A stretch of 49,215 bases of DNA from Cyanophora paradoxa CCMP329 (lineage: Eukaryota > Plantae > Glaucophyta): contig QPMI01000463.1 of NCBI GenBank assembly GCA_004431415.1, positions 1 through 49,215 on the forward strand. Reading direction: 5' to 3'. The position numbers and the translations under genes are program-made. The notes under the pieces were generated by a model, which saw nothing but the letters and a program-made list of their open reading frames with translations, was not told the DNA's origin and did no database searches. Below, piece by piece: positions 5,301-36,642 of the stretch (its first letter is position 1; each line of letters begins with the position of its first letter).

Positions 5301-5526
5301 TGCCACGCCATGGCACCGTACTTTCGAGCTGCATTCGCGAATTTCTTCGGCGAATCACGCCGCCCCGATCCATTCACGCGCACGGACCCTCGTGGCTCCA
5401 GAGGGCCAGAGTTTTCGCAAATTCAAATGAAACCTCGAAGGTGGAGCACCGGGGACGGTGCTTCACCGAAGGGGGAGTGGTATCGAGAGCAGTTCGCTGT
5501 GCTACGGCTTCCGCTCTTCAGCGGAA

Positions 5527-5532
5527 GAGGAG
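5527..5532 (+). repeat. Left target-site duplication GAGGAG
   Basis: Immediately precedes the left TIR; identical to 29714..29719. Confidence 0.9.
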
Positions 5533-5901
5533 GCTCGCATGCAGGTAACCCCCACCAATTGCGCGCAAAAAAGCCGACCATGTCAATAAGCAGGTCTTAC
5601 ATCTCCCACAATTCTCAGTGCGAAAATCATAAATTCGCACTGAGCCACACTATATTTTTCAAACATCTAACCCTTCCTTACTGAAACCAATCACGAAACC
5701 CTTTAATTCTCCATTTTTCTAATTCCTTACCATTCTCAGTAAGCCCTTTAACCCTCCCCCAATCTCTCAGTAAGGACAGTAAGACCCTTATTTTTACGAA
5801 ATGTTCCCGATCGTTTCCAAACTGTTTTCAGTTACCCAAATTGAAAAATCCAGGTAGACCCCACCAATTAAACAAGTGATCCCCACTTAAAGACTTCCCG
5901 A

Positions 5902-6240
5902 ATGTATAATGTAACAATGGCAAGCAATCAAGTAAATCTACCTGAGACTAAGCGGTGCAATGTTTGCGACAAGGTAAAACCGGCATCGAGTTATGCATTG
6001 CAAAAGCGTAGCTCAGGGAATGTACTTTTGAATTGGAGATGCAAAGTTTGCGACCGAGACTATCACAATTACCTTTATCATTTCGTGTTAAAAACGCGTC
6101 CGAAGATCGAAGTACAATCGAAGATATGCTCGCACTGCAAGATTGAGAAGCTTGCAAGTGAGTTTAATAAAAGACAAAGAACGAAGGATGGTCTCAACTA
6201 TCAATGCCGAGAGTGTTATAGCAAAACTCGTAAGAGTTAA
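5902..6240 (+). CDS. Zinc-finger protein with two CxxC..CxxC modules, encoded inside the TIR
   Basis: KRCNVCDKVK..WRCKVC and KICSHCKIEK..F..DGLNYQCREC. This pattern resembles zinc ribbons found N-terminal to phage/NCLDV endonucleases. Confidence 0.75.
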   Translation: MYNVTMASNQVNLPETKRCNVCDKVKPASSYALQKRSSGNVLLNWRCKVCDRDYHNYLYHFVLKTRPKIEVQSKICSHCKIEKLASEFNKRQRTKDGLNYQCRECYSKTRKS

Positions 6241-6321
6241 ACCGAATTTCATTGTATATTTTTTAAAGCAAGTTTATGCATGAGCAAGCATGCCGAAAAT
6301 GCCCACCTGCACAAACTTGCG

Positions 6322-6387
6322 ACTTCAATCGAAATGTACTTCAATCGAAATGTACTTCAATCGAAATGTACGAATCGAAATGTACGA
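6322..6387. repeat. 16-bp tandem repeat (acttcaatcgaaatgt) x3 plus one variant, inside the TIR (mirrored at ~28859..28924)
   Basis: Read directly from the sequence. Confidence 0.85.
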
Positions 6388-6513
6388 TTAGCATATTTAC
6401 GACAAAGTACGACGATAGACCACGTTAAAATACACTCGCGCCCCGCCCACTATGCAAGATACATGCCTTTCTTATGCATGATCTATGAAAAATAACAATA
6501 AACCCATCTCTCT

Positions 6514-7809: not shown

Positions 7810-7830
7810 CTTTTGATTGTTCTTTACTTA

Positions 7831-9294: not shown

Positions 9295-9412
9295 TATTTC
9301 TCTATTATGGCATACTACAAAAATTAGGATCGCTACATAACATTTGGAACATGTTCATATATTCTCCCTTCTCGCTGTGCCATTTCCGCCATAAAGTCTG
9401 CATTATCTTTTA

Positions 9413-12400: not shown

Positions 12401-13051
12401 TTTCGCGGAGTCTAATGTGAAAACGCCCTCTGTAATTTGGGGAACCGTGTCGCTCTTCTGAATAATAAAGGAATCAAGATTTAGATTGCATGTGGCGACA
12501 TTGGTGGCGAAGAAAGACTCTGAATTAAATGAGTTTACGTTCAGAGTGTCCGTGGTGATGTTGCTTGCTGCAATGTTGCTCGTCGTCAAATTACCTGCTG
12601 AGAGATCATGGACGACCTCTACCTTTGTTTTCCGCGTGGATACTCCCGCTATAAGCGTGCTATTATCCACGATTCTCATAGCTGCATTTTGGAAACCGCT
12701 CTCATCTTGAATGAAGAAGTTTAAGCGACCTCTATCGAAAGCTTTTGGGATGTTCCTCCGATTATATCGCACCGTTTTCGGTAACTGACGAGTCGCCTGG
12801 ATGCTGGCAACTCTGTTTCGCTCGTTGTCATCAAGTAAAAAGTCGATTGCAAGCTTGTGATCCCCCTTCTCGACGTTCATTAACTGCAAAGCTGCGGGTC
12901 TGCTCGGTGTTCCACTGACTGGATCTTCGCGGTCTGCATTGTAATTTATTCTGATAGACCCGCGAATTTCGGTGTTTACCTGGTCAGTGTCCTCTATCTG
13001 CGTGGTCGAATTAATTACTCGTGCATCGGGTCTCGGATTCAGGAACGACAT
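9413..13051 (-). CDS. Large (~1212 aa) fibre/structural protein with a C-terminal Pro/Asn/Asp-rich linker and predicted transmembrane helix
   Basis: Likely start MSFLNPRP at 13051, after an AT-rich leader. Repeats NIYPATDNTYRVGLSNLRW and NIVPFSQNFDLGANSLRW; recurrent TCNI motif; FTFETPFVSPPTI..NITTTGF..INWKATG domain; hydrophobic segment LVLLILLPILGALGLVLAY. Confidence 0.75.
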   Translation of the reverse strand: MSFLNPRPDARVINSTTQIEDTDQVNTEIRGSIRINYNADREDPVSGTPSRPAALQLMNVEKGDHKLAIDFLLDDNERNRVASIQATRQLPKTVRYNRRNIPKAFDRGRLNFFIQDESGFQNAAMRIVDNSTLIAGVSTRKTKVEVVHDLSAGNLTTSNIAASNITTDTLNVNSFNSESFFATNVATCNLNLDSFIIQKSDTVPQITEGVFTLDSAKPTLEIVENGNVVDIIGANAPNVRSLALDKTTISFAEEIPAFTTEKQALRTDHVYITRDNINDLLGKDIVKAFLEFERNKNTKDSSQDGTLTTHTTEIAALQSEINALFAADGALAITLAHILSKRNIYPATDNTYRVGLSNLRWSEMHGVSMFASNLILPLNHSLRPNQIPTDERALISYNDFNSNLSRSVSRTETYTVEGYPQQLANGVYVAYVGKPTYTFTWDQLSVTDLESIPTVSLVDHTTYYNPIYNNNESNKAFIQNVTSTGFQVSFVINETYNLLIIRNNSLSSEATISFTLNINYITPEFDSKPRVKVYRDLQGSNIVPFSQNFDLGANSLRWNTVYTLNANTCNIVVAGSSATIGDLTAPFKKEYLKELYITKSDLPDAISLVLSPTPSISYHNVKDTSNVVQRGSKVFQASEISATTYRYLAAVPANFNFTFETPFVSPPTIEITDTNLYVVNNGSTTSINNAPAGYSPFVATNITTTGFTLVGNATVTYALTAYPVGLYFAKFNLSAIPPVSLSPPFTINWKATGTIPRFDPEDRLKIRYPLDVTDLHTTRINGQNFVFNGTNATLINNSVTNNYFFDSRYINTCNIVIQNTFENRSKTLTVTLPTHSNVSDGFYYYLFNRNYTSYIPYPSETVDMSYPKVTLTSTNAHFFGSTDFMTFFAFTSSTDGLLVYYTFRYDAVWTQLDSHPNTDVIEVGDKKYIKTASPWVCTVRLDDRYTPNLNNIGMHSTCNIYVQGAISATKYFEGGNCDAGHRLLSRNGFFESFSGTALPPFIRDTVYDTTCNIWVCRSVSNPPVTKELYKYLSDTYGAISGSSTGNPATAPIVFANAYTAPTSLAGSTEPPPNDPNPNQPNPDPDSKDPPTTDPDPNTTPNNPSNPTNPVGSPGMDPGTLVLLILLPILGALGLVLAYKFRALCCACIDRTIAGAGNKYSVPEMNVTQTAEGDVGLEVRSAEGHGLSVVRTDQPPASRAAPKNREQNEWLNQ

Positions 13052-13094
13052 CCTCTTTATAAACAAAGAAGATATATAAGAAGTATATAAGATA

Positions 13095-14586
13095 ATGAAG
13101 ACCGTTCTCGCTTTGAGTGGAGGGGGTCGCGCGGAATAATCGAGGCTGCTATACTGGCACAGATTGAAGCCCAAACAGGTAAACGAATCCAACAGCTATT
13201 CGACTGCTTTGCGGGAACATCCACAGGTGGATTAATCGCGCTCCTATTAAATATCAAGGGAACCGATGGAGCCCCAAAATATACTGCTACTGATATTCTG
13301 GCGCTCTACAAAGCGAAGCTACCGCTGATTTTCGCAAATCCACGAGTGCTTACATCGATTGTACAGCGCCCAAAGTACGAAGCAACTAACTTAGAAGCGG
13401 TGGCTCTCGAACTCTGCGGCTCAGCGACCATGGCGGATCTCTATAAACCCACCATCGTGACTGCGTTCGACACGGTCTTAATGTCCCCCGTTTTTATTTC
13501 AAGCAACGATGAAGATATTAATGGGATGCTTGTGCGCGATGCTGCAAGGGCTACCTCGGCTGCTCCGACCTATTTCGAGCCGAAACAAGTCACAGTCGCC
13601 GGAAGAACATACTGTTTAATCGATGGTTGCATGAGCGGAAATAATTCGCCCGGGGTTTGTGGCTACACATTCGCCCGCACTTTATTCGGAAACTCTTGCG
13701 AGGAGGAGCTTATAGTGGTCTCGATTACGGCGGGTCACGTCCAAGACTCTGATAAGGCGACAGCTGGATATTCGTACGACACCATGAAAAATTGGGGGAT
13801 CGTGCAATGGATGCTAAGCGCGACAGGATCGCCAATTCTCAGCATGTTCTTAGAGTCGAGCGATCTAAACGCCCACGTAAAGCTACTGGAACTTTTACCC
13901 AGAAACGATGATCAGAATTACGATCGCTACTATAAGCTGAGCGTTCCTTTACCGAAAGATAAAATGACCCTCGATACTATCACAACGAGTCACCTGCAAT
14001 ATTTGGAAACGGAAGCGCTCGCCTTTGTTTCCGCACAGCAAACGTATTTTAATGCGATGTATTCAGTGCTGACCATGAATATCTCAGAGGGCGATGTTCC
14101 CATAATTAATCTGTCCGGGTGCACAGATGTAAGCGCACCCCGGAGTCTAACTGGGTGCCGCTCGATAATAGCGCCTTTATTGCGGAATTCGGCACAGCCT
14201 CCAATGCCCGCTGGTCGAATGCCACGGGGTGGGTGGGCTTTACTAACCCGCCGCAAGGTAGTAGGTCGGGAGGCAATTATTTACGCATCGATTTTCCGCG
14301 TCTGTTTATGCTTTCCTCTATAAAAATGAAGCCGGCTGCGAATGGAAACTACATTAAAACGTTTGAGATCGATTACCAGCTTACTCCCGGAGTTTCTGCG
14401 CTTGTTACATACACAGAAGCCGGCGCGACGAGAGTGTTTACCAATGCGAATCAAATAGCCGGAAGTGCGGATCCCGACGAACATTTCTTAGCGAACCCGA
14501 GATCTGTGAGAACCCTCGTAATCTGGGTGCTCTCGACAAACGTAGCTTCGGCATGCCGAATTGATTTCGAGGGCTATTACGTGTGA
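13095..14586 (+). CDS. Patatin-like phospholipase fused to an F5/8 type C (discoidin) domain; two 1-nt frameshifts (~13125, ~14140) reflect either sequencing error or pseudogenisation
   Basis: ATG at 13095 gives MKTVLALSGGG/xRGIIEAAIL..FDCFAGTSTGGLIA (glycine loop plus GxSxG), then ARATSAAPTYF and LIDG. The next frame encodes YLRIDF..NYIKTFEIDY..RVF..NPRSVRTL..CRIDFEG (discoidin). Adding one base to each of the G5 and C4 runs gives a single ~497-aa ORF. Confidence 0.8.
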
Positions 14587-14592
14587 CAGCGC

Positions 14593-15438
14593 TTAATCCG
14601 TGATCACTTCGAGCTGGAACGAGAATGAGAGACCGTTTATATCCGCAACAGAGCCCCTCCATTTTCGAAGCGATATTGTGAGGCGATCTAAATCGAGTTG
14701 CGATGTGACATTTACGAAAGGGATGCTTGCGCTCGGTTCGTGGTAAAAGGAATATCTACCAAAGTCCGAGTTCATCTGAATTCGCAATAGATAGGAGTCA
14801 TCGAAATTGTTCTGTCTCCCAGTAACCGCTGCGAATTTGGTAAACGGGCGGAGCTCTTCGATATCAAGGTAAATATATGGAATCGCATTAAAGTCGACCA
14901 TTTTCGGGCATATAATCGCGTAGCGACTCGGGTAATCTCTGAGTGGAACCGTCACTGGTTCTGGTGTGCTGGCGTAAACCACTCCGGGTTCTATGCCGAG
15001 ACAATCACAGAGCTCCTGGTCTGAGGACTCTAATGTAAACGGGCTGTTTGGAGACGAGAACACGAAGCGGTTTGTGGACAGAGCGAGAGAATAGGAAACC
15101 GGGAAGACACCGAGTGGATTAAAAGAACCGCCCGCAAATCCGAGTAAAGCATCACTGTTTAAAGCTCTCTCTTTCGGATATCGTTCGTTATCAGCATCAA
15201 CGTAATAATAATCGTTTACGCTGGGAATCGGTGCTATCATTTTGGATGCGGGGATTACTGTGGGCTCTTCGTTTAGAAGCGTTATAGTAATTGTCTGATC
15301 GGGCGGAACAACATAAGAGCTATTAGGAATCTCAGCGGATAGCACACGAAATCGTCGTACATTATTAAGGCGCGTTTTCAAGTGCAGCACGCCGTTTTCA
15401 AGGTCTCTACTGTCGCAATTTATTGTTATTCTTTTCAT
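14593..15438 (-). CDS. Minor capsid (penton-like) protein 1
   Basis: INCDSRD..LNNVRRFRVLSAEIPNSSY N-terminus; PYIYLDIEEL; LDRLTISL..DINGLSFSFQLEV C-terminus, typical of PLV/NCLDV single-jelly-roll mCPs. Confidence 0.8.
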   Translation of the reverse strand: MKRITINCDSRDLENGVLHLKTRLNNVRRFRVLSAEIPNSSYVVPPDQTITITLLNEEPTVIPASKMIAPIPSVNDYYYVDADNERYPKERALNSDALLGFAGGSFNPLGVFPVSYSLALSTNRFVFSSPNSPFTLESSDQELCDCLGIEPGVVYASTPEPVTVPLRDYPSRYAIICPKMVDFNAIPYIYLDIEELRPFTKFAAVTGRQNNFDDSYLLRIQMNSDFGRYSFYHEPSASIPFVNVTSQLDLDRLTISLRKWRGSVADINGLSFSFQLEVITD

Positions 15439-15454
15439 AATCTATTATAGTAAG

Positions 15455-16381
15455 ATGAAAGAATACCTGAGCTTTTCGAGCGATGATCGCGACGAGGAGT
15501 TCACACAGCCAAACAAGTATGTAGTGACATTACCCCGTCGCTATGACAACGTAAAATCGGTGCGCCTGGTGCAGGCAACGGTTCCGAATGTTCTTTCAAC
15601 TGTGACGAACGATATCGACGCCACTGGTGCAACCATCGAGCGCATGGAACTCTATTTCTCGGTCACAGCTTCGGATTCTGGATTCGTGACCATCACAATC
15701 CCCAAAGGATTTTACACCAAAGACGACCTTGCCGCAAAAGTCACAGAAAGACTCGAAGCAGCTCGCCTTTCAGATTTCGGTGGAAAATATATTAAATGCC
15801 GCTATAATACTACTTCAAAGATCTATGAGTTTTTCAGTGATAGTAACTTTTGGTTCAAGTTCTCCAAAGCTTCCCCTGAAACACTCAGAAAATCCAGTAA
15901 CCGCAAAGCAATCGCTAAGAAACTCGCAATATTCGGTTTCAAAGATATTCAACTATATGTTTACGAGACATTTACCCCTCTTGCAAGCGATACATTCCTT
16001 GTGTTTAATCCTGGGACGGGAACTGTGACACTCAATCGACGCATTCGCGGCTATACTCGTGGAGATGAGACCCCGGCTGCAATGATCTGGCTATATATTG
16101 ACGAATTCGCGCCGTTTATTCGCTCAGTCAACAAGCACGTCGACGGTTATTTCATGCGCATTCCAATCCCACAGGAACTCGAACACGGTGATATCTACCA
16201 CTTTGACACGTCCACTACTGTGCCTCTCGTTCGCGAGTTCCGCGAATTAAAATCTTTCGACCGCCTCACGATTAAGCTCATCGACCATGACGGCGCTCTC
16301 TTAGATTTCGGGGTTTGGGCGCATTATTTCACTTTTGAAATCGAAACCTACGACGCACCGCCGGAAATGAATTTCTACTGA
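15455..16381 (+). CDS. Minor capsid (penton-like) protein 2
   Basis: FSSDDRD..PNKYVVTLPRRYDNVKSVRLVQATVPN; ITIPKGFYT; FDRLTIKLIDHDGALLDFG..HYFTFEIE. Confidence 0.82.
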   Translation: MKEYLSFSSDDRDEEFTQPNKYVVTLPRRYDNVKSVRLVQATVPNVLSTVTNDIDATGATIERMELYFSVTASDSGFVTITIPKGFYTKDDLAAKVTERLEAARLSDFGGKYIKCRYNTTSKIYEFFSDSNFWFKFSKASPETLRKSSNRKAIAKKLAIFGFKDIQLYVYETFTPLASDTFLVFNPGTGTVTLNRRIRGYTRGDETPAAMIWLYIDEFAPFIRSVNKHVDGYFMRIPIPQELEHGDIYHFDTSTTVPLVREFRELKSFDRLTIKLIDHDGALLDFGVWAHYFTFEIETYDAPPEMNFY

Positions 16382-16428: not shown

Positions 16429-17742
16429 ATGGAGACTAACAGCCAATTCCAGCGCCCAACGCTGAAATCTATGCTCACCACCGATGACTACAAGGATTAT
16501 TTCCTAAACAAGTCGCTGGTCATTGGAACGTCCTCTGGCACTAAGCCACTTCGAGTTCTGGTCGCCCCCGACACTGAGCCACCCAGCGCTCTCGGCAACC
16601 GAGTTGTCTTCAAAATCCCCCGCTACCATTTCCTGAATGGTCTCGCGCTGCAACTCGATCTTAACCCGATCACCCTCACTGATCTCACGAATGGTGTCGC
16701 TGGAACTACTGGCTACCTTCGCGTTATTGGATCGCTAATTAAGCGCATCGAAATCTCTCACGCTTCATTCCGCTACGTTGTCCCAGAGGATTTCGTCACC
16801 CAGTATTTTCTACTGATGACCGAACAGGGCGAACTCGATAAAAAACTTCGCTATGTGGGTGGTCTTGTCGGAACCGCTGGTAACACTGTCGGTGGAACCT
16901 ACGAAATCGATTTACCCTCTCCTTTCGAGAAGGCGATGTTCCCACTTTGCGCTCTGAACTCTGAGATCGTGGTCGAAATCGAATTCAAGGCGATTGGTGA
17001 TGGTATCATTGAGGATGTAAACAATGTTGGCAATATTTCGGTTACCAACAATGGCGCTTCCCTTCAAGTGCTGAAACCCCGCGTTATCTGCAAGGTCGTA
17101 AATGCCGATGAGGCGGTTGTCTCTGAGACCATTGCCCGTGTTAAATCGACTGGTATCGCGATCCCCTACAACGAAATCGGTTTCCTCCACACAGATTTCC
17201 AGCCGACCGCCTCCGGTTCGCGAGTCAATCTCTCGCAACTCACAGGTGCGGGTCTCATCCACACTCTCGTATTCTCTGTGCGCCAAAACGCGAAGACGAA
17301 GGTGAACAACGGAACTCTCTCGGTTCTGGCTCCTCGTGCACTCCGAACCAACGCTGTAAGCTTCTATGTGGAACTCAACAATAACCGCCTTTACTCGAAT
17401 ACTTCGCTTCCTCTCATGATTGCCGCGACCGAACTTCAAGATAAATATAATTCGGCGATTTTCACCGAGAGCACAAGCTACCCCGCTCTCACTGGCATTT
17501 ACTTCGGTGCTGGAAACGGAAAGGCGTCGCTTCTCAACCAAGAGAATACGGGCTACATCGATGCCACAGGCACATCGGCGTTCGATCTGGTCTTCGAATT
17601 CAACGGTGTCACAACGGCAGCCGAAGGTTCATCAGAATGGTATGCGGGTGCCGCTTATCAGAAGATGCAAATTCAGTGCATTGCCCTCGCTCATAACATA
17701 ATGATAATTGGTGCCGACGGTATCCGTCGTGTGAGTAGCTAA
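16429..17742 (+). CDS. Major capsid protein (double jelly-roll, PLV type)
   Basis: 437 aa and beta-rich. Motifs VVFKIPR..LALQLDL, LIKRIEI and FPLCAL.SEIVVEIEF. Located between the mCP and the packaging ATPase. Confidence 0.8.
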   Translation: METNSQFQRPTLKSMLTTDDYKDYFLNKSLVIGTSSGTKPLRVLVAPDTEPPSALGNRVVFKIPRYHFLNGLALQLDLNPITLTDLTNGVAGTTGYLRVIGSLIKRIEISHASFRYVVPEDFVTQYFLLMTEQGELDKKLRYVGGLVGTAGNTVGGTYEIDLPSPFEKAMFPLCALNSEIVVEIEFKAIGDGIIEDVNNVGNISVTNNGASLQVLKPRVICKVVNADEAVVSETIARVKSTGIAIPYNEIGFLHTDFQPTASGSRVNLSQLTGAGLIHTLVFSVRQNAKTKVNNGTLSVLAPRALRTNAVSFYVELNNNRLYSNTSLPLMIAATELQDKYNSAIFTESTSYPALTGIYFGAGNGKASLLNQENTGYIDATGTSAFDLVFEFNGVTTAAEGSSEWYAGAAYQKMQIQCIALAHNIMIIGADGIRRVSS

Positions 17743-17800
17743 GGAATTCGTGCGATTACCACATTCAGTCTTATTTTTCTATTGTTTTTATAGTGAAAGA

Positions 17801-18667
17801 ATGCAAAAAGGGACGACGCCCATGGATCTCGAAGAATGGAACCCGAAACAAAGGGTGAAACTTCCCGCACGATTTCTCCTATTGGCGAAAACCAATTGTG
17901 GTAAATCGGTATTCTTAAAGTGGCTGATCAAAGAACTCGAAGACCAGATCTCGTATGTTCTGGTTTTCTGTCCTACGAGTTTTAACGGTTTCTGGGGTCA
18001 AATAACAGACGAAGTGCATGATACCTGGAAACCGGAATATGTAGAGTCGATCATAGAAGCCCGCAAGAAAGCTATCATCGCTGGAAAGAAACCAAAGAAT
18101 ATTCTCATCGTACTCGACGATTGTTTGGAGTCCGGAACTATCGATCTTTCGCGCGATCATTTGCTAAATAAATTGATGGCGCAAGGTCGTCATACGTTTT
18201 GTTCCGTGGCTTTAATATCGCAGAAACTAACAAAACTTTCAACGATCATTCGCAGCAATGCGGAGTATATCATATTCCTAAGCTGGTCAAACATGCGAGA
18301 GTTTGAAGCATATCACGAAGAGTTCGGGAACATGGATAAAGAGAGTTTTAAGCGCATGTTCCAAGAATTCTGTCATAGCTACCAAGCGATCATTCACGAT
18401 AATACCGGGTATTCTGTGCGATGGTGGGTCGAAAAAGCCGATATGATCGATGACCATCCGTTTACGAAATTCCACAAGCGGGCGGCTTTTGAAGAAAAGA
18501 AGCGCAAACAACAAGAGGAGCAAGCTACAAAACCGCCGCCTGTCAAAGATTCGACAACTGTCTGTAAAACTTTATCCAAATTTGAGCGTGAGCTTGAAGG
18601 TATCCCCAAACTTTCCCAAATTTCGCCTAAGAAAAAGAAAATGTTAATCAAATGTAAGAGAAGATAA
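17801..18667 (+). CDS. A32/FtsK-HerA-family genome packaging ATPase
   Basis: Walker A AKTNCGKS, Walker B ILIVLDD, QGRH motif, ISQ and IRSN. The ATG at 17801 is preferred over the GTG at 17750. Confidence 0.92.
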   Translation: MQKGTTPMDLEEWNPKQRVKLPARFLLLAKTNCGKSVFLKWLIKELEDQISYVLVFCPTSFNGFWGQITDEVHDTWKPEYVESIIEARKKAIIAGKKPKNILIVLDDCLESGTIDLSRDHLLNKLMAQGRHTFCSVALISQKLTKLSTIIRSNAEYIIFLSWSNMREFEAYHEEFGNMDKESFKRMFQEFCHSYQAIIHDNTGYSVRWWVEKADMIDDHPFTKFHKRAAFEEKKRKQQEEQATKPPPVKDSTTVCKTLSKFERELEGIPKLSQISPKKKKMLIKCKRR

Positions 18668-20694: not shown

Positions 20695-23600
20695 ATGCCG
20701 CGCGCAGCCAACAGAATCGCTAACAATGTTCGGGAGGAGATTATCGGATACATTATGCAGGGATTGAGTCAGGATTTGCTAACCGAAGAACAGGCGCATT
20801 GGGCGATGCACAACACAATGAATCGGAAGCCCAAGCTCCAAACGCTGATCGACATTCGGGATACTCTGAATGGAATCATTAATCCCCGCGTTTTCCGCAG
20901 GGCAGAGCGGAAAGAAAAGCGTGCCGCTCGCACCCAAGTTAATATAGAAAAGCAGAAGCAAAAAGAACAAGAGGCTAAGCGTTTACAGCGCTTCGATCGC
21001 AAGCAAGAACAGAAACGAGCGAAAGAAGCGAAACTCGAAGCGAAGCAGCAGAGAGGTAAAGTAAAAGCGGTAGAGGATGCGATAAAACGCAATATTCTCG
21101 ACCCAATCGCCGCATACGATCCGGAAACTCTCGCAACAATTACGTTCAAGCTATGGGGACCTGGATCCGGTGCTCGGTCGACGGAGGTAATTGTTATTCC
21201 CGGAATTCCCGAATTAAATATACCAGACAGAACCTTTGTCACCTACCGCAATATAAGAGAGACAGTTTCGGTGAGGGTGTTGAGAAACTTTGCTCTGGCA
21301 AAAATCGATAGAGTGTATGGAATTCTCACCGCTCAAAATCGTTATTATTCGGAAGAGAGAGATTCAATCTTCGATTTACTCGAAAACTACGATGAATTGA
21401 AGATTCGTCTGGGAACTTTCGGACAAGCATACGAGATGTTCTTCTTTAAGACACCACCAACCGAGGAACAGAAAAAACTACGCAAAGGTTTCGATGATTT
21501 TGGCGGCAGTGTCGATGATGCCTTTATAACTGTTCATGAGATCGCGATCGATGGGGACGAAGGTGTCGAAGATGACGGAGCCGGTGCTATTCCTGGAAAT
21601 CGCTATGCGTTTCTGGATGAGGAGCTCATGGACAGTATGCGATGCACCGCGATTATGAGCAAATTCACAGACTATACATTAAATCCAAACGCGTCTGAGT
21701 TCGAAGATGTTATTGAGCTTCCCAAATCATCGACATCTAACGCTTGCGGCTATGATATGATCATCTCCACATGGGGAGCGTCCATTAAGAAGTGTCAGGA
21801 GGCGCCAAAACCGCGATATACTGACTTAACTATGTCGTACGACGGTCTCTATAAATTCTTTCACGGTCGCGAACGCACACCTGGCGACTCTCTGGCTCTC
21901 ACCCTCCGCCATATCGAGAAATTCTGTAAGAGAATTCAGACAGGCTTCCGCGTCTTTGATGTCGACGGTAAGTTAATATACAAATTCGCGGCGGAATCAA
22001 TTAACAAAAACATCTTTCCCCGCAATATTCACTTTATGATTCACAACAAGCACATCTATATATTCAACGATAACATCAAGTCGCTCGAAATGCGCATGGC
22101 AAAGATGGAGGTCGAAGAGCTCGATAATCATGTTCCTAAGTCCAACTCTTCGTTAGCACTCTATAAAATTCCGACGTGTCTTACTCACGATATCTTCGCG
22201 CACACATCCAAGGATTTGTTAAAGATCACGCAACTTAAACTATCGCCTGACGAGCGCAGTTTCATCCGCATTCTTTATACTGGGCGCGAAGGTCTGGAAG
22301 GTCTTCTATTTACGTTCCTGAAAATGCGATATGAGCCCGCAGTGAAGCTAACACCATCGAAACAGATCGACAGCATCACATTCAAAGCTAATGGCTCCAT
22401 GTTCTCTATCAAAGATCCACGCACAACAGACCACTTTATTGAGCAAGATTTCGAAACAGAGGAGTATTATAATAAGGTCTGTGAAATCGGTAAGGGGTTC
22501 CGCGAGTCGCTACTAAATGCGACGAATATCTCACATTACAGCCCGAACATGCGCGAAATTCTCACGCACTACAAGCGATCCGCACTTAGCGGCTATTTCT
22601 ATAAGCCAAACCCGAAAGCCACCTACACAGCCGTCGATATGGCGAAGTGCTACCCTTCGATACTGAAAGGCATGCAATATCTTCCGAAGTACAATGTATT
22701 CGATGACTTCGTTCCCTTTAAAGCGGGAAGCGATATTCTCGAATACGCGATTTACTACGTGCGTGTAGTTGCGTTTGAGAGAGAGCAAGCGACTTTCGCC
22801 GACGATGAGGACATTGATTATGATGCCGCCATGTCTCGCAAGATTGATGGAATCGAAATTATTCTGGATCGCGCATTTTCCGTGAGTGGTCGCTGTTATA
22901 ATTTCATGACAGGCTACACTCTCTCCATGCATTGGGCGGACGTAAAGGACAAGATAGAGATTATCGCGGTCGCGGAGCCTTCGCATTTGGTGCCCAATAC
23001 GTCGATCGCTGAGATGCAAAAAGTGCTATCAAGCGACATTCAAACCACAGATAAGAAGCACATTTTAGTGAAAGAGATCGGAATGCTCGGCAAATTCCAA
23101 GACTCGCAAACATCCACGAAAATGTTCTACAACCGTGCCGAGGCTGAGAGGTTCGCCCAAGAATGCGGAGGAACAGTAGAGGTGTTTACTTTCAATCCTA
23201 AGAATTCGAAACGTGTCAAAACTCTTAGCGAATTCGAAGGTCACATCTATTTCGTTAAGATCAGCTCCCACCGCGAGCTCGTTAACGGATTCCTTCCTAT
23301 CCACTTTCATATTTACGATCGTAACCGTGCTAATATGTTCGCGCAATACAAGCGCCTGACAGCGCGCGGGCACAAGGTTGCCGGGATCAGAACGGATTGC
23401 CTATATATCGAAGGTTCATGGACAAGTAAGAAAGAGTTCGACCGAAATGCGTTTGAGAACATGGGCAAATTCAGCTATATTCCCGGGAAAAGATGCCCTG
23501 AGAATGCACTCCGCCCACCACGGGGTGTAACTCTCGAATTTCAGGATCCCGAGACACTCATTAACCGGTTCTCGCTGAGGGACGAATTTAATCCTGAGTG

Positions 23601-25005
23601 CTTTAATTGGGTTGCGGAGCTCCACAATCGTATGCTTGTCCTTGCTGACATGCCCGGAAGTGGAAAGTCGACACTCGGTATTAACTGTTTCGCATCTCAA
23701 AAGTCGAATTGCTTAGTTATTTGCCCCTATAACAAACAGTGCGCAGAGCTGAGAGACTCTCTCAAAGTCCGCGGAATCGGAAATATTACCGTTCGTACTT
23801 TGTATAATGTTCTCGGGATCCGTGTCTCAAATGATCAGACCTACGAAGAGGCTATGAGCGAGAAAGACCAGAGGGCGTTTGTCTCCGAGTTCAGTCACAT
23901 TATGTTCGACGAGATATTTGCGTATTCTGTAAAAGACCTCGCTAAGATCAAGTCGTTTATCGATCGCTATCCGGATATCAAATATTTGGCTAATGGCGAT
24001 ACCTATCAAAATGAACCGATTAATGATGAGCTATCGGTTTCTGATCGCAAGGGCTACTATAAGCGCGCTGTGCAGAGCATGTTCCCTAACGTCCTGAGTC
24101 TTCGCATTAACAAGCGGCACAAGAAGGAGACAGACCGTGAATTAATTCGGGCGATTAAAGAGGATCTCTTCGAGAACGGACTCGAAGCCTCACAGATCAT
24201 CTCGAAATACGGCTTACCGACAATTAATGATCTAAGCGCTATTCCCGACGGCTACTTTGGCATCGCTTACAGAAACGAAATGACCTTAGCCTATAACAAA
24301 CTGATGCACGATAGACGAAAAGTAAATATCCCGACCGTAGAGGTCAACGGCATCAAATTCTACAAGGGTTTGGAAGTCGTTTGTCGCAGGTATCTACGCA
24401 TTTCGCGGTCTGAGGGTGAGTCTATTAATGCATACACAAATTACACCTATCGGATCACCAAGATCACCAAGCAAATGGTCACATTAACTGACGTTTTCGA
24501 TGGCGTCACGTTCGAGGTTCCGTGCGCGATGTTAGAACATTTTTCTCTCCCTTATGCAGGAACAGGTCATTCAACGCAAGGTCTCACACTTGATTCGGGC
24601 ATTGTCATTTGTGAGGCTACGTTCCGCTATACCACTCGCGAATGGTTCTATACCGCGCTCACTCGTAACCGCGATCTGTCTACTGTGCTGATTTATACAC
24701 CGATTCACAGATTCCAAGGAAAGAGCGACTACATCGAATATCTGAAAACGAAGATCCGCGGTTATAAATGCCAGGATCAGCGTGCCGGGCGCGATTTCGA
24801 CGAGGCGGATTATATTACGCCGGAGTGGATATTAGAGCGCAAAAAGCAACAGAAGGGCGCCTGTGCGCTCTGTTCCCTTCCTATTCCGACTGAGCCACAA
24901 GATCCAAATTACAAGCTCGTCGTGGATCGCATTAACAACAGGCGCCCACACCTTCAAGACAATTGCCAGCTCGTGCATCACGGGTGCAATTGCAGCAAAA
25001 AATAA
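20695..25005 (+). CDS. Multidomain replication protein: putative vOTU-like protease + family-B DNA polymerase + SF1 helicase + C-terminal HNH-like domain
   Basis: PolB motifs A (AVDMAKCYPSIL), B (KKHILVKEIGMLGK) and C (GIRTDCLYI). SF1 motifs DMPGSGKS, MFDEIF, GDTYQNEP, GHSTQGLT and YTALTR. C-terminus CALC..VDRINNRRPHLQDNCQLVHHGCN. N-terminal SNACG...IHFMIHNKHIY. Confidence 0.85.
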   Translation: MPRAANRIANNVREEIIGYIMQGLSQDLLTEEQAHWAMHNTMNRKPKLQTLIDIRDTLNGIINPRVFRRAERKEKRAARTQVNIEKQKQKEQEAKRLQRFDRKQEQKRAKEAKLEAKQQRGKVKAVEDAIKRNILDPIAAYDPETLATITFKLWGPGSGARSTEVIVIPGIPELNIPDRTFVTYRNIRETVSVRVLRNFALAKIDRVYGILTAQNRYYSEERDSIFDLLENYDELKIRLGTFGQAYEMFFFKTPPTEEQKKLRKGFDDFGGSVDDAFITVHEIAIDGDEGVEDDGAGAIPGNRYAFLDEELMDSMRCTAIMSKFTDYTLNPNASEFEDVIELPKSSTSNACGYDMIISTWGASIKKCQEAPKPRYTDLTMSYDGLYKFFHGRERTPGDSLALTLRHIEKFCKRIQTGFRVFDVDGKLIYKFAAESINKNIFPRNIHFMIHNKHIYIFNDNIKSLEMRMAKMEVEELDNHVPKSNSSLALYKIPTCLTHDIFAHTSKDLLKITQLKLSPDERSFIRILYTGREGLEGLLFTFLKMRYEPAVKLTPSKQIDSITFKANGSMFSIKDPRTTDHFIEQDFETEEYYNKVCEIGKGFRESLLNATNISHYSPNMREILTHYKRSALSGYFYKPNPKATYTAVDMAKCYPSILKGMQYLPKYNVFDDFVPFKAGSDILEYAIYYVRVVAFEREQATFADDEDIDYDAAMSRKIDGIEIILDRAFSVSGRCYNFMTGYTLSMHWADVKDKIEIIAVAEPSHLVPNTSIAEMQKVLSSDIQTTDKKHILVKEIGMLGKFQDSQTSTKMFYNRAEAERFAQECGGTVEVFTFNPKNSKRVKTLSEFEGHIYFVKISSHRELVNGFLPIHFHIYDRNRANMFAQYKRLTARGHKVAGIRTDCLYIEGSWTSKKEFDRNAFENMGKFSYIPGKRCPENALRPPRGVTLEFQDPETLINRFSLRDEFNPECFNWVAELHNRMLVLADMPGSGKSTLGINCFASQKSNCLVICPYNKQCAELRDSLKVRGIGNITVRTLYNVLGIRVSNDQTYEEAMSEKDQRAFVSEFSHIMFDEIFAYSVKDLAKIKSFIDRYPDIKYLANGDTYQNEPINDELSVSDRKGYYKRAVQSMFPNVLSLRINKRHKKETDRELIRAIKEDLFENGLEASQIISKYGLPTINDLSAIPDGYFGIAYRNEMTLAYNKLMHDRRKVNIPTVEVNGIKFYKGLEVVCRRYLRISRSEGESINAYTNYTYRITKITKQMVTLTDVFDGVTFEVPCAMLEHFSLPYAGTGHSTQGLTLDSGIVICEATFRYTTREWFYTALTRNRDLSTVLIYTPIHRFQGKSDYIEYLKTKIRGYKCQDQRAGRDFDEADYITPEWILERKKQQKGACALCSLPIPTEPQDPNYKLVVDRINNRRPHLQDNCQLVHHGCNCSKK

Positions 25006-25023: not shown

Positions 25024-26406
25024 ATGTCACGGATCGTCAGAAGGGTAGCGGGAGAGGAGACAGAGACCACCATACTACCTATCGCGGTTCCTGAAACTGA
25101 GCAAGTCCCCCAAAAAATTACAAAACGCCAAGCAAAATCAAATTTATTAGGAGATGTTCCTTTTAGCATTGCTAACCCGTCCTCTAAGATCGTGCGCCGC
25201 ATGTATGACCCAAAGACAGGTTTTAAGAACCCATCGGCATTGTACGAAGAGCTGAGAAAAGAGGACAAGAGCCTCACATTGAAAGAAGTGCAAGATGTCG
25301 CAGCGAAACAAGAATTTATGCAGATCAACAAGAAGCCCCCAGCACCGACCCAAACAGCTTTTATTCCCATCACAGCCCCGCCGTGGTGCTATCAAGCGGA
25401 TCTCATCTTTTATCTCTCATATGGCAATTATAATTCCGGCTACATTGCAGTCCTTACTCTCATTGAGATGACGAGCCGAAAAGCATATGCCAAGAAGTTA
25501 AAGAATAAGGAGGGCGCAAGTGTTGCCGCCGCTTTTGCGGAGATGCTTGCAGAGCTCCCGGCTCCGATGATTCGATTGGAGACAGATAACGGTTCGGAAT
25601 TCATCGCGAAGGAGTTTCAGGAGGTCGTAAAAAATAATGGAATAGAGCACCGCTTTAAACAGGTCGGAGATCACACTTCGCTGGGAATTATGAATCGCTT
25701 TCATTTGACCCTAAAAACGATGATAAACAACTACTGTGTCGCTTATAACACTGTGCGATTTATGGACAAGCTGGACGACTTCGTTTTCAATTACAATAAC
25801 ACCATTCACAGAACCATAGGAATGAAGCCCGCAGATGTTAAGCTCTCAGATATGGAGCGGATCCGAGCGGCTATTATTTCGAAAAAGAACACAATCGTCA
25901 AGGATATATTCAGCGACTTTAAACCTGGGCTCCACGTCCGTGTATTATTGCCGAGATCAAAGTTTGATAAAGGAGCAACACAAAGGTATAGCCGAGAGGT
26001 CTACAAAATTGCGGGAAGGAGAGGAAACGCGATAGAGGTGCAAGATGCAGCCGGGAACGTAATGCCGAAGCTTTTTAAGCCGCACGAATTGCAGATCATT
26101 ACAGAGGTCGAGGCTGTGGTGGAACCATCAGGCAACGCTATTTTAGCGGCTGATGTAGAGGCAGCTTCGATCCGGCAGGTTCAAAAAGAAGGCATAGATG
26201 TCGCCGCAAGTGTTCCGAAAGGGGCTTTATTGGAAGATCGCGCAGAAAAGACAAAGAGGGCGCTGAGGGAGCTCGCTAAATTAACGATTGCAGGAACTGA
26301 GAAGCTCTCAGAGGTAAACAGTCAGAGGTGGTATAAATCATTCAAGAATCAGAGCGCAAGCTACACAGCCCCTACTACGCGCATTCTTCGGTCATCTCGT
26401 TCATAA
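25024..26406 (+). CDS. Retroviral-like (rve) integrase of Polinton type
   Basis: YQADLIF (D1), LETDNGSEF (D2), GIMNRFHLTLK (E position is N), YNNTIHRTIGMKP, SH3-like GLHVRV..FDKG..YSREVYKI; no chromodomain seen. Confidence 0.92.
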   Translation: MSRIVRRVAGEETETTILPIAVPETEQVPQKITKRQAKSNLLGDVPFSIANPSSKIVRRMYDPKTGFKNPSALYEELRKEDKSLTLKEVQDVAAKQEFMQINKKPPAPTQTAFIPITAPPWCYQADLIFYLSYGNYNSGYIAVLTLIEMTSRKAYAKKLKNKEGASVAAAFAEMLAELPAPMIRLETDNGSEFIAKEFQEVVKNNGIEHRFKQVGDHTSLGIMNRFHLTLKTMINNYCVAYNTVRFMDKLDDFVFNYNNTIHRTIGMKPADVKLSDMERIRAAIISKKNTIVKDIFSDFKPGLHVRVLLPRSKFDKGATQRYSREVYKIAGRRGNAIEVQDAAGNVMPKLFKPHELQIITEVEAVVEPSGNAILAADVEAASIRQVQKEGIDVAASVPKGALLEDRAEKTKRALRELAKLTIAGTEKLSEVNSQRWYKSFKNQSASYTAPTTRILRSSRS

Positions 26407-26445: not shown

Positions 26446-26760
26446 ATGGAGGGTGAAAAGCATTTCGTTGACATTCCGTATGATAAAAAAGACGTTGCGA
26501 AATCCCTCGGTGGAAAGTGGGATCGTGAGAATTCATGCTGGTATGTCACGAAGAAAGATCACCCCCTATGCTCTCAGTTCAAAACTCTAAGCTATGAGCA
26601 AGTGTATCAAAGAAACGTGAAGGTTTACCTCGATATTCCTTATGAATTTAAGGATCAAGCGAAGGCTGAGAGAGCCCGCTGGGATCCCGTCATGCGATGC
26701 TGGTATGTCATGGGTCTCGATCACCCGCTAATGGGCAAGTTTCCGATCAAGGAACATTAA
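26446..26760 (+). CDS. Tandem DUF5710-like domain protein
   Basis: Two repeats: FVDIPYDKKDVAKSLGGKWDRENSCWYV and YLDIPYEFKDQAKAERARWDPVMRCWYV. Confidence 0.85.
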   Translation: MEGEKHFVDIPYDKKDVAKSLGGKWDRENSCWYVTKKDHPLCSQFKTLSYEQVYQRNVKVYLDIPYEFKDQAKAERARWDPVMRCWYVMGLDHPLMGKFPIKEH

Positions 26761-26785: not shown

Positions 26786-27178
26786 TTATGAAATTGGGAA
26801 CCTTTGCTCGACCTGTAAGTCCCACTTTCGAACTTTCAGCCTTTCTTGTATGAGTTCGTTAATGTCCCGTGCTATACCCATTGTCTTCGCTTCGGCATTT
26901 GTGCCGCATGTAAATATATCGATTGCTAATAGCCCCTGGTCGCTATAAGAGTGAGCCGTCGCATGCGACTCATCTAATAAAAAGCCAATCGCGAAACCGG
27001 GAGGGGAATTAGAGCCATCGAAAATGCATGTGTGCTGGTGCACGATGCGCATCTGGCGATCTGTGATATATTGCGATAGGTTCGCTGTGATCCACTCGGC
27101 GCATGCCTCCGGGGACTCGGTGAACGGGTCGGTTATATAGTCAAGCATAACGTGGTAGCCGCGGTATCGGGAATCCAT
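26786..27178 (-). CDS. speD: Pyruvoyl-dependent S-adenosylmethionine decarboxylase proenzyme (prokaryotic class 1B type)
   Basis: GYHVMLDY N-terminus, LLDESH self-cleavage site, HSY, AIDIFTCG; 130 aa. Confidence 0.85.
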   Translation of the reverse strand: MDSRYRGYHVMLDYITDPFTESPEACAEWITANLSQYITDRQMRIVHQHTCIFDGSNSPPGFAIGFLLDESHATAHSYSDQGLLAIDIFTCGTNAEAKTMGIARDINELIQERLKVRKWDLQVEQRFPIS

Positions 27179-27565: not shown

Positions 27566-27644
27566 GTCGGGACTCGGGACTCGGGACTCGGGACTCGGAA
27601 CTCGGGACTCCGGGACTCGGGAGTCGGGACTCGGGACTCGGGAT
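27566..27644. repeat. Heptamer tandem repeat (cgggact)n, ~11 units
   Basis: Read directly from the sequence. Confidence 0.9.
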
Positions 27645-28080
27645 TCCAACTTCGCAACTTGCAACTTAAAAAATGCAACTGGCAAGTATCATAGTATAGG
27701 CTTAGTAGGCTACCGCCGACCGCCGACCGCCGACTCGGCGCCGAGTTGGCTCAGAGGCTTAGAGCCCCGCGATCGCATTTTTTAAAAATATGCATTTTAC
27801 ACATTATTTATTGAGCCTATGAAACTTATATGGACGTGCTAGCCTCGTTAAGACGGTCACGGCGCTATTTTCAGTTTTGCAGCCTGGCAGGGTGATGAGC
27901 TGGTGATGAGATACAAGCGCTCGACGGTTTGTAGTGCGGGTTGTTTTTCAGTTTTGTATATATGTGTCGTATATATACACGTCAAAATGTTTGCGACTCG
28001 CGCGCCGAGTCGCTGAGTCACGATCATCGCATCACATCACTGATGATGACGCGCACGGTCATACGTATATACATCAGCTG

Positions 28081-28231
28081 CCCTATCAGCTGATTTATCA
28101 CACTACGATCAGCCCCTATCAGCTGATTTATCACACTACGATCAGCCCTATCAGCTGATTTATCACACTACGATCAGCCCTATCAGCTGATTTATCACAC
28201 TACGATCAGCCCTATCAGCTGATTTATCACA
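28081..28231. repeat. 32-bp tandem array A (ccctatcagctgatttatcacactacgatcag) x4 plus a partial unit
   Basis: Read directly; each unit contains the palindrome ATCAGCTGAT. Confidence 0.92.
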
Positions 28232-28294
28232 TTACCGGCGATGCTGTCCGGTGATGCTATCGCCCGGGTGATACTATACAGCGATACTATCCAC

Positions 28295-28500
28295 CGATAC
28301 TATCGCCCTGAGGTCATACTATGGGGCGATACTATCGCCCTGAGGTCATACTATGGGGCGATACTATCGCCCTGAGGTCATACTATGGGGCGATACTATC
28401 GCCCTGAGGTCATACTATGGGGCGATACTATCGCCCTGAGGTCATACTATGGGGCGATACTATCGCCCTGAGGTTATACTATGGGGCGATACTATCGCCC
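28295..28500. repeat. 32-bp tandem array B (cgatactatcgccctgaggtcatactatgggg) x6 plus a partial unit
   Basis: Read directly; unit junctions form GGGCGATA-C-TATCGCCC inverted repeats. Confidence 0.92.
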
Positions 28501-28772: not shown

Positions 28773-29713
28773 GCATGTATCTTGCATAGTGGGCGGGGCG
28801 CGAGTCGCGAGTGTATTTTAACGTGGTCTATCGTCGTACTTTGTCGTAAATATGCTAATCGTACATTTCGATTCGTACATTTCGATTGAAGTACATTTCG
28901 ATTGAAGTACATTTCGATTGAAGTCGCAAGTTTGTGCAGGTGGGCATTTTCGGCATGCTTGCTCATGCATAAACTTGCTTTAAAAAATATACAATGAAAT
29001 TCGGTTTAACTCTTACGAGTTTTGCTATAACACTCTCGGCATTGATAGTTGAGACCATCCTTCGTTCTTTGTCTTTTATTAAACTCACTTGCAAGCTTCT
29101 CAATCTTGCAGTGCGAGCATATCTTCGATTGTACTTCGATCTTCGGACGCGTTTTTAACACGAAATGATAAAGGTAATTGTGATAGTCTCGGTCGCAAAC
29201 TTTGCATCTCCAATTCAAAAGTACATTCCCTGAGCTACGCTTTTGCAATGCATAACTCGATGCCGGTTTTACCTTGTCGCAAACATTGCACCGCTTAGTC
29301 TCAGGTAGATTTACTTGATTGCTTGCCATTGTTACATTATACATTCGGGAAGTCTTTAAGTGGGGATCACTTGTTTAATTGGTGGGGTCTACCTGGATTT
29401 TTCAATTTGGGTAACTGAAAACAGTTTGGAAACGATCGGGAACATTTCGTAAAAATAAGGGTCTTACTGTCCTTACTGAGAGATTGGGGGAGGGTTAAAG
29501 GGCTTACTGAGAATGGTAAGGAATTAGAAAAATGGAGAATTAAAGGGTTTCGTGATTGGTTTCAGTAAGGAAGGGTTAGATGTTTGAAAAATATAGTGTG
29601 GCTCAGTGCGAATTTATGATTTTCGCACTGAGAATTGTGGGAGATGTAAGACCTGCTTATTGACATGGTCGGCTTTTTTGCGCGCAATTGGTGGGGGTTA
29701 CCTGCATGCGAGC
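28773..29713 (-). repeat. Right terminal inverted repeat (941 bp)
   Basis: Reverse complement of 5533..6466; ends ...CCTGCATGCGAGC, followed by the TSD. Confidence 0.95.
29006..29344 (-). CDS. Second, identical copy of the TIR-encoded zinc-finger protein
   Basis: Translation identical to 5902..6240. Confidence 0.75.
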   Translation of the reverse strand: MYNVTMASNQVNLPETKRCNVCDKVKPASSYALQKRSSGNVLLNWRCKVCDRDYHNYLYHFVLKTRPKIEVQSKICSHCKIEKLASEFNKRQRTKDGLNYQCRECYSKTRKS

Positions 29714-29719
29714 GAGGAG
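29714..29719 (+). repeat. Right target-site duplication GAGGAG
   Basis: Identical to 5527..5532. Confidence 0.9.
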
Positions 29720-29742: not shown

Positions 29743-29889
29743 GCTTCCGCTCTTCAGCGGAAGAGGAGTACGTACACCGGCGCCCCAGCAGAAGGCTGCC
29801 CCCTGGCCAGACGCCAGAGCACCTCCCCGATTGGCGCGTGCCTGCCACCATGGCACGCCCCGACTTTCCCTCTTCAGCGGAAGAGGAGT
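29743..29889 (+). repeat. Host hairpin motif CTCTTC-AGCG-GAAGAG-GAGT, repeated (29743..29773, 29870..29889; also 31710..31725 and the interrupted copy at 5507..5532)
   Basis: Read directly from the sequence. Confidence 0.8.
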
Positions 29890-34020: not shown

Positions 34021-34476
34021 GCCTGCTCGCCTGCTGCTGGTACGCTACGGGAAGGTTGCTAAGGTCTACTGGGACGTATAAAACCTCCTAAAACATCCTC
34101 GCCGGGACCAGCGCACGCCAGCTGACGGACTTGCTGCGCACGTCCGTTGGCCGCGAGCGTGAACCCGCTGGACTACGAGGAGGCGAACGCTTGACGCTTT
34201 CGGAGAGCACCGCTACTGGCGGACGCACTCCGCTGACCCGCCTCGCCGCCGACGCTTCCCTTCTCGAAGCTTCGGACGCGCCTCCGCCGCTCACTCGCGC
34301 AGTTGGGGAGCAGCCCGCCGTACCGCGGCATCGGCTAGCTCCCTGGCTCATCGTTCGTGCCGCGCGCGCATCGGGATCGGTTGCGGCGGTCCGACTCGAA
34401 CGACGGTCACGGGCCAGCTCGCGTACCGTACTGCGGTCGCGGCCCGACGGCAACGTCTACGTCGAACGACCGCGTG

Positions 34477-36588: not shown

Positions 36589-36642
36589 CACACAACACAA
36601 CTACAATGAGTTTCACATCGCCCAATAAATCTCTCCGACTAG

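Follow-up and report, generated by a model that had tools for sequence, protein, structure and literature searches.

A predicted protein-primed replicase joining protease, palm, helicase and HNH domains in an endogenous polinton-like virus of Cyanophora paradoxa

The window analysed here, 49,215 nucleotides of the glaucophyte Cyanophora paradoxa CCMP329 (contig QPMI01000463.1 of assembly GCA_004431415.1), contains an endogenous polinton-like virus (PLV) and, within that virus at 20695..25005 on the forward strand, a gene of the pPolB-S1H ('Tlr1-like helicase') type, which reads as a single open reading frame (ORF) of 1436 amino acids (aa) without an internal stop. We propose that this one chain, in which an OTU-type protease fold, a phi29-like palm, an SF1B helicase and an HNH domain follow one another, is probably the protein-primed replicase of the virus. 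The demonstrated part of this proposal consists of the single frame, the element with its repeats and target-site duplication (TSD), the assignment of the domains by profile and predicted fold, and the conservation of the catalytic positions. An original prediction made from the DNA letters had already joined a family B polymerase (PolB), an SF1 helicase and an HNH domain in this frame without a stop, and the places it gave for motifs A, B and C, Walker A, motif VI and the terminal CxxC..DR domain are all found in the sequence. Its picture of an all-in-one replicase that possibly lacks proofreading and couples helicase to polymerase agrees with our results and with the family reading in the text of PMC11161782. 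It overrated the novelty of the gene, recognising neither the known family nor the protein-primed character of the palm.

On the activity of the pPolB-S1H palms the 2016 report (PMC5499653) decided against and the 2024 report (PMC11161782) in favour, each of them, according to its text, from prediction only. The present gene offers a test case, being intact, under apparent purifying selection and part of an apparently recent insertion with identical repeats.

Domains of the chain

Homologues were gathered as 46 proteins from three protein searches and 27 loci from two DNA scans with a helicase pattern. The alignment comprises the query and 50 homologues (42 proteins and 8 unbroken locus ORFs; 51 sequences), leaving out four N-terminal protein fragments without the protease region (P0003, P0006, P0029 and P0034) and the 19 of 27 loci that are partial or broken. 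The homologues align from residue ~300 to the end at 21-28% identity, and sixteen columns are invariant in all 51 sequences, led by C351, H453, D648, G796, T900, D901, G988, G990, K991, D1072 and E1073. The original prediction had asked whether homologues keep the fusion, and they do: the protease dyad, the palm aspartates and the helicase motifs stand in a single chain in all 50, and in 46 of these the HNH Arg and Asn are in the same chain too. Among the 27 loci, motif C and Walker A lie in one open stretch in 20, four begin past motif C at a contig edge and three are broken there. In the homologue tree the query is a long branch beside P0045 (support 0.87). No match came from a tblastn search of a phage collection, nor from viral contigs searched with the query alone, and a protein search with a 5-sequence alignment returned nothing at E<=1e-20.

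The polymerase was assigned from an AlphaFold2 model of aa 476-960 (52 sequences, mean pLDDT 80.4, pTM 0.81), one of two fold predictions, the other covering aa 135-475. All nine Foldseek matches at E<=0.001 are phi29 DNA polymerase (best 3.9e-10), which scores Z 14.6-15.1 compared with at most 8.7 for other family B polymerases. Model residues 19-463 (aa ~494-938) align with phi29 residues 3-498 over 369 residues (Z 15.1, rmsd 4.5), compared with about 170 residues in palm-only matches, so that the central region is predicted to fold as a PolB palm, as had been suggested. Palm and fingers of the protein-primed family B type are placed at aa ~641-938 (22615..23508, forward strand), with TPR1- and TPR2-sized insertions. 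Pfam finds no PolB in the 1436-aa protein and gives only weak helicase C-terminal matches, phmmer against solved structures returns only RecD (E 0.21), and a profile comparison with the single phi29 sequence reaches a probability of 0.2; the assignments of the polymerase and of the exonuclease remnant described below therefore rest on the predicted fold.

Motif A, DMAKCYPS, begins at aa 648 (22636) and its aspartate D648 is invariant (51/51). Motif B spans K788 to G796 (23056-23082), 140 residues past motif A (134 in phi29), and in phi29 this motif binds the incoming nucleotide as well as the template (PMC1635332). It had been described as lacking the usual N..YG, which holds for the Asn and the Tyr; the Gly is kept, as is K788. 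In the homologues the Lys is present in 49 of 50, the Asn in 47, the Tyr in one and the Gly in all, which makes the loss of the Asn, replaced here by V792, a feature of this lineage only. Motif C lies a further 113 residues on (75 in phi29). The TPR1 region is ~30 residues longer than the homologue median. Motif C reads RTDC (aa 899-902, 23389), as noted originally, and T900 and D901 are invariant (51/51). Its first Asp is absent from all 50 homologues (K in 38, H in 4, R in 4, S in 2, N in 2; R899 here), and RTDC is thus the norm of the family.

The original prediction also found no Exo I, II or III motifs. The catalytic motifs are indeed absent, and aa 494-640 hold one conserved acidic column, at 507 (46/50 homologues); the model nevertheless predicts that a shrunken exonuclease-like fold persists before the palm at aa ~494-640 (22174..22614, forward strand), presumably inactive. 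We take phi29 Exo I, II and III to lie at about 11, 59 and 165, motif A at 249 and KxY at 498, having located them by motif. On that assumption at least 119 aligned residues precede motif A, at least 40 of them at or before Exo III, and in several rows archaeal polymerases align from chain residue 135-138 too, which together point to the remnant. The length before motif A is 153 residues, compared with 245 in phi29. At the other end the structural match stops at phi29 498-500, the KxY motif, and there is no thumb match; D901 and the Walker A lysine are 90 residues apart, which would leave no space for a thumb of the size found in phi29.

The SF1B helicase (Dda/RecD/Pif1-like) occupies aa 970-1339 (23602..24711, forward strand) with all of its motifs, including Walker A GSGKS at aa 988-992, Walker B FDEIF at aa 1071 and motif VI YTALTRNR at aa 1319 (24649). 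It matches the Dda-like PHROG 325 (E 2.8e-13), and the family profile matches Dda E 1.3e-11, RecD E 3.6e-10 and Pif1 E 0.004. The SF1B group translocates 5' to 3' according to the text of PMC5499653.

The chain begins with a basic Lys/Arg/Gln-rich segment (aa 1-135, 20695..21099, forward strand) that shares 5-8% identity per 50-residue block with the homologues. An alpha/beta domain follows at aa ~140-290 (21112..21564, forward strand), modelled at low confidence (pLDDT 44-72 per block), which, judged only by its position, may be the terminal (priming) protein. Its best match to a solved structure has Z 3.7, and its best viral-model rows include an entry of 999 aa (E 1.4e-4) as well as DNA polymerases labelled densovirus (E 7.6e-4), with TM about 0.2; residues 1-310 have no usable match in the ESM Atlas. 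Likeness to Y-family polymerases is given as a mark of PRD1-like terminal proteins in the consulted part of the PMC11161782 supplement, and no such row is among the 50 listed for the N-terminal model, the vOTU domain filling that list.

Past an acidic linker comes a vOTU-like cysteine protease (aa ~315-465, 21637..22089, forward strand), the segment that had been left unassigned at aa 330-470. Its Cys351 (21745) and His453 (22051) are invariant in all 51 aligned sequences. In a fold search of the N-terminal model against 48,161 chains, OTU and vOTU proteases take ranks 1-17 with Z 4.5-6.1 (best match Z 6.1, rmsd 3.2, 101 residues aligned), and all 50 rows listed in a further fold search are OTU. 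The first 17 ranks include 7y5m, 8c83 and 6ks5, the three entries given for the Tlr1 vOTU in the portion of the 2024 supplement consulted, and the Z, which is modest, equals that published there for the Tlr1 and transpoviron vOTUs (PMC11161782).

The chain ends in a His-Me finger (HNH) domain at aa 1351-1436 (24745..25002, forward strand; PHROG 1035, endonuclease VII family, E 9.3e-9) with the pattern CxxC...DR-x7-H-x3-N...HxxCN, in which CALC stands at aa 1390 and DRINN at aa 1411. Arg1412 occupies the place of the catalytic His of HNH enzymes, and one zinc ligand is His instead of Cys, as in two of the 50 homologues. The columns are kept in most homologues (R1412 in 46 of 50, H1419 in 45, N1423 in 46, N1432 in 43).

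These parts suggest a scheme for the replicase. The vOTU domain, through Cys351 and His453, would release the N-terminal priming domain from the remainder of the chain by cleavage, and the priming domain would start synthesis at the ends of a linear genome bounded by terminal inverted repeats (TIRs). The palm would extend DNA by means of D648 and D901 without proofreading, the exonuclease domain serving as a shrunken scaffold, while the 5'-to-3' helicase would travel along the displaced strand, moving the same way as the polymerase and the fork. In phi29 the tunnels for processivity and strand separation are formed by TPR2, exonuclease, thumb and palm (PMC1635332). Here the helicase may compensate, in processivity and strand separation, for the absent thumb and the reduced exonuclease domain. 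It is plausible that it substitutes for intrinsic strand displacement, as originally suggested; the thumb match is missing and the exonuclease domain shrunken, but a TPR2-sized insertion is kept in the model. DNA would be nicked or cleaved by the HNH domain, in which His1419 would act from the loop position occupied in PacI by a tyrosine, and the neighbouring rve integrase would insert copies, leaving 6-bp duplications.

Alternative readings

On the purpose of the HNH domain, the choice between a homing passenger and a domesticated nuclease is about even. The original prediction had suggested that the domain could process or resolve genome ends. That it is instead a homing endonuclease carried along as a passenger, moving the replicase gene from one co-infecting element to another without any role in replication or end processing, has only slightly less than an even chance, a judgement that concerns the nuclease alone and leaves the replicase reading in place. 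Published texts call the domain a homing endonuclease, and they describe an unrelated GIY-YIG domain at this place in Tlr1 where PLVs have HNH (PMC5499653, PMC11161782). The domain is, however, retained as the C-terminal part by 46 of 50 homologues, spread over the whole tree (these being related, the retentions are not independent); the other four stop within the helicase or at the edge of a contig. Its helical lead-in is conserved as well (K1353 45/50, Y1357 45/50, Q1360 44/50, D1361 46/50), which also argues against a mere passenger.

The site itself recalls PacI. One homologue can be aligned ungapped, though weakly (E 0.81), with PacI 89-115, and that alignment places the conserved His of the family, H1419, on PacI Tyr100, which we take to be the loop tyrosine of that enzyme. 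A search with an HNH-only alignment placed PacI eighth of nine (E 1.5), behind McrA (0.085) and DraIII, and homologue P0024 matched nothing. PacI has a loop tyrosine in place of histidine (PMC5714182, PMC4081073). The domain resembles PacI-type His-Me finger nucleases (group 20, PMC5714182) in that an Arg follows the metal-binding Asp at the place of the His of HNH enzymes, in its two zinc-ligand pairs and in a conserved residue eight places past the Asp; it differs in having His at the loop position (45/50 homologues; Tyr in one), in its fusion to a replicase and in the weakness of the match. With His in place of the loop Tyr we do not assign it to group 20, and its mechanism is perhaps like that of PacI. 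The DR-x7-H site supplies a concrete residue with which to ask what the nuclease is for.

The main rival reading, put forward in 2016, takes the palm as a dead scaffold and the protein as a helicase, with a protease and a nuclease, that attaches to genome ends and brings in a polymerase from the host or a helper virus. All 50 homologues lack the first Asp of motif C and 49 lack the Tyr of motif B, the Asn of motif B is lost here too, and the structural match stops at the KxY motif, all of which would suit an inactive palm, as the text of PMC5499653 read it. Against this, at an overall identity of 20-27%, D648 and D901 are invariant (51/51) and 49 of 50 homologues keep K788, no further polymerase is recognised in the element, and the same authors reversed their view in 2024 in the text of PMC11161782. 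We hold a dead palm to be quite unlikely.

Several points nevertheless count against an active protein-primed replicase. Neither the first Asp of motif C nor the Tyr of motif B is present in the palm, and here the Asn is missing as well, its replacement by Val showing no listed variant in four sequencing runs; our literature searches listed no biochemical study of the pPolB-S1H family. The priming domain has no clear match in structure and Atlas searches, the Z scores of the vOTU (up to 6.2) lie within the range that the tool calls common, and PacI matches are weak in all comparisons (E 0.14, 1.5 and 0.81). The protein searches took only candidates near full length, which biases them to fused forms, so that the loci are the fairer test. 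A bolder, compound version of the replicase reading, in which a family B polymerase is active without the first Asp of motif C, the Asn and Tyr of motif B, a thumb or proofreading, its exonuclease fold reduced to a scaffold, and a domesticated PacI-like nuclease with a loop His as base serves, instead of homing, to resolve replication intermediates or to free integrated copies, is in our judgement unlikely. The loss of the motif B Asn would make this gene a probe of the minimal active site of family B polymerases.

An artefact of assembly or a frameshift that would have joined separate genes for polymerase, helicase and nuclease has next to no probability. It is already refuted at the palm-helicase junction, where contigs of three runs, one of which may be the window's own source, bridge motif C to Walker A with 0 gaps (X1 23353-23750, X2 23329-23879, X4 23329-23879). 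The 50 homologues are all fused, and the 90-residue spacing equals their median (range 77-105). Nothing was found in favour of an artefact; breaks do occur in some related loci, mostly at other places in the gene.

Among the contigs listed none covers the entire gene or the helicase-HNH junction. No indel is listed at 22990-23430 in four runs, and among the indels listed a minority contig carries a compensated pair of one-base indels at 21482/21492. The element is present in 20 of 24 sequencing runs from 17 studies, and the 909-1311 short variant contigs per DNA run over 11.5 kb of it suggest that related copies form a family. Of the variant sites listed at 22990-23430 for related copies, 19 of 30 are synonymous, compared with 21.5% for random changes (binomial P 9e-7); over the gene the figure is 23 of 31 (binomial P 6e-10 against the same 21.5%), a set formed by the 31 sites of the gene with the best support, from 513 rows, with each site classed singly. 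The replicase gene is apparently under purifying selection.

At four of the 27 related loci a same-direction frame change occurs at one place (L001:10894-11023, L002:1926-1950, L009:390-429, L013:5193-5223), right after a conserved 'YGG' turn in the TPR2 region (window aa ~834-845), where the gene of the window is intact; L002 and L013 show no other break in the gene. The loci share no common slippery heptamer and the place adjoins an acidic low-complexity loop. An indel hot spot is the simpler reading, and a programmed frameshift is possible.

The polinton-like virus and its surroundings

The element is an endogenous PLV of 24,181 bp (5533-29713), as its identical TIRs, 6-bp TSD, rve integrase, A32 ATPase and likely capsid gene indicate, and it has the TIRs and falls in the size range (15-45 kb) expected of PLVs. 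The left TIR (5533..6446, 914 bp) is 100% complementary to the right one (28800..29713, 914 bp), and the TSD GAGGAG lies outside them at 5527..5532 and 29714..29719 (forward strand, 6 bp each). The GC content of the element is 0.454, compared with 0.604 and 0.635 in the flanks, which makes it a low-GC island, and we infer a recent insertion in a GC-rich eukaryote genome. A canonical Polinton/Maverick would have a full pPolB with exonuclease motifs, which this element lacks, and a transpoviron would have no virion genes, of which the A32 ATPase is present here together with a likely capsid gene.

A retrovirus-like rve integrase (25024..26406, forward strand; PF00665, E 8.4e-14) starts 18 bp past the replicase stop, and an A32-like packaging ATPase lies at 17750..18667 (forward strand; PF04665, E 1.6e-10); at the 27 related loci, rve neighbours occur in three and A32 neighbours in three. 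A candidate double jelly-roll capsid gene at 16429..17742 (forward strand; 437 aa) is a lead from the ESM Atlas, where its product has feature matches of 0.97-0.98 to clusters with Capsid_N/Capsid_NCLDV on 12-30% of members, at a recognition score of 1858, below the tool's 2300 mark. It has no Pfam or PHROG match and no solved-structure match by sequence, finds nothing in viral contigs as a query, and has five relatives among 1.84 billion representatives. Two divergent and mutually related ORFs (E 3e-6) beside it, 14593-15438 (reverse) and 15455-16381 (forward), have a sub-cut-off match to DUF5901 (E 0.0016) and, from size and position, are possibly minor capsid proteins. The cargo genes are an S-adenosylmethionine decarboxylase (26786-27178, reverse strand; PF02675) and a DUF5710 gene (26446-26760, forward strand). 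No capsid-maturation protease was recognised within the element, and a Pfam scan recognised no other polymerase among its genes.

A patatin-like phospholipase gene (13096-14323) has its first codons out of frame with the remainder and is broken near its 5' end in this copy. Three fibre-like genes on the reverse strand (6787-13192) comprise a C1q-domain gene (340 aa), one for a repeat protein of 487 aa and a long ORF (up to 1259 aa) whose product matches H-lectin weakly and has a hydrophobic segment at its C-terminus. Each TIR encodes an identical 112-aa protein (5902-6240 forward, 29006-29344 reverse) with two zinc-finger units and PHROG matches to N-terminal parts of phage HNH/endonuclease VII families, and contains a 16-bp x 4.1 array (6322-6385 and 28861-28924). 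Sub-terminal tandem arrays at the right end (27567-28500) consist of a 7-bp unit x 10.9 and two distinct 32-bp units x 4.8 and x 6.4. The motif TATTTTCTCCGG occurs four times with at most one mismatch (19516, 20075, 20660, 26420; 0.23 expected), 9-31 bases upstream of the ORF starts at 19558, 20096, 20695 (the replicase gene) and 26446, and is a candidate viral promoter motif common to the replicase gene and the other ORFs.

The element is inserted where a 26-bp host motif ends (5507-5532); this motif contains an internal inverted repeat and recurs just downstream at 29743-29768 and 29863-29888; a target preference or an insertion into a host repeat is possible. Outside the element, at 34357-45215, lie long GC-rich ORFs, the first with zinc knuckles (gag-like) and the others without a Pfam match, which likely represent a host retroelement or other repeat.

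Relation to known systems

The gene is an ordinary addition to the known Tlr1-like helicase / pPolB-S1H family, whose architecture was published in 2016 and 2024. The text of PMC5499653 (2016) describes the fusion of palm and SF1 helicase with a C-terminal HNH in PLVs, with the exonuclease and motif 4 missing; that of PMC11161782 (2024) adds the terminal protein and vOTU, discusses the missing motif C Asp, predicts catalytic activity and proposes that gain of the helicase accompanied loss of the exonuclease. The Tlr1-like helicases of PLVs, Tetrahymena Tlr1 and transpovirons are given in these texts as 1,000-1,400 aa (1436 here), with the same order of terminal-protein position, vOTU with Cys and His, palm with TPR1 and TPR2, SF1B helicase and HNH, the Tlr1 and B. 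natans proteins being likened by published descriptions. They are alike, too, in lacking the Exo motifs, the first Asp of motif C and motif 4, and in belonging to linear genomes with inverted repeats. The present protein differs as a divergent branch with Val for the motif B Asn, His for Cys as a zinc ligand and a longer TPR1 region, and its model keeps a shrunken exonuclease remnant where the texts report the domain lacking. The published text on the family mentions neither such a remnant nor a PacI likeness of the nuclease, and our literature searches listed nothing on these two; the loss of the motif B Asn in this lineage was likewise not found in that text. The remnant would align the family with mavirus, pointing to shrinkage and not clean loss; mavirus pPolB differs in having a separate SF3 helicase, where here an SF1B helicase and HNH are fused.

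Among endogenous elements, the text of PMC13215967 reports 358 complete ones from 7041 eukaryote genomes, many with a pPolB-SF1 fusion, and its pMVRE groups 2 and 3 resemble the present element in being TIR-bounded, with a truncated, palm-retaining pPolB-SF1, rve and, subject to the capsid lead, an NCLDV-type capsid family. Two preprints from 2026 describe polB-SF1 genes in their text as a replicase common among PLVs and report a pairing of PolB with DDE integrases. The Tlr1 element of Tetrahymena thermophila, as published texts describe it, likewise carries an rve integrase and pPolB-S1H in one element and differs in its C-terminal GIY-YIG domain, where HNH stands here. The Helicase SF1-pPolB of OmPLV from Oxyrrhis marina, in the text of PMC12721341, is also an SF1-pPolB fusion of about 1,500 aa in an endogenous PLV; it differs in having the helicase first, intact Exo I-III, a tyrosine recombinase and no target duplication, and its fusion is independent of that in pPolB-S1H.

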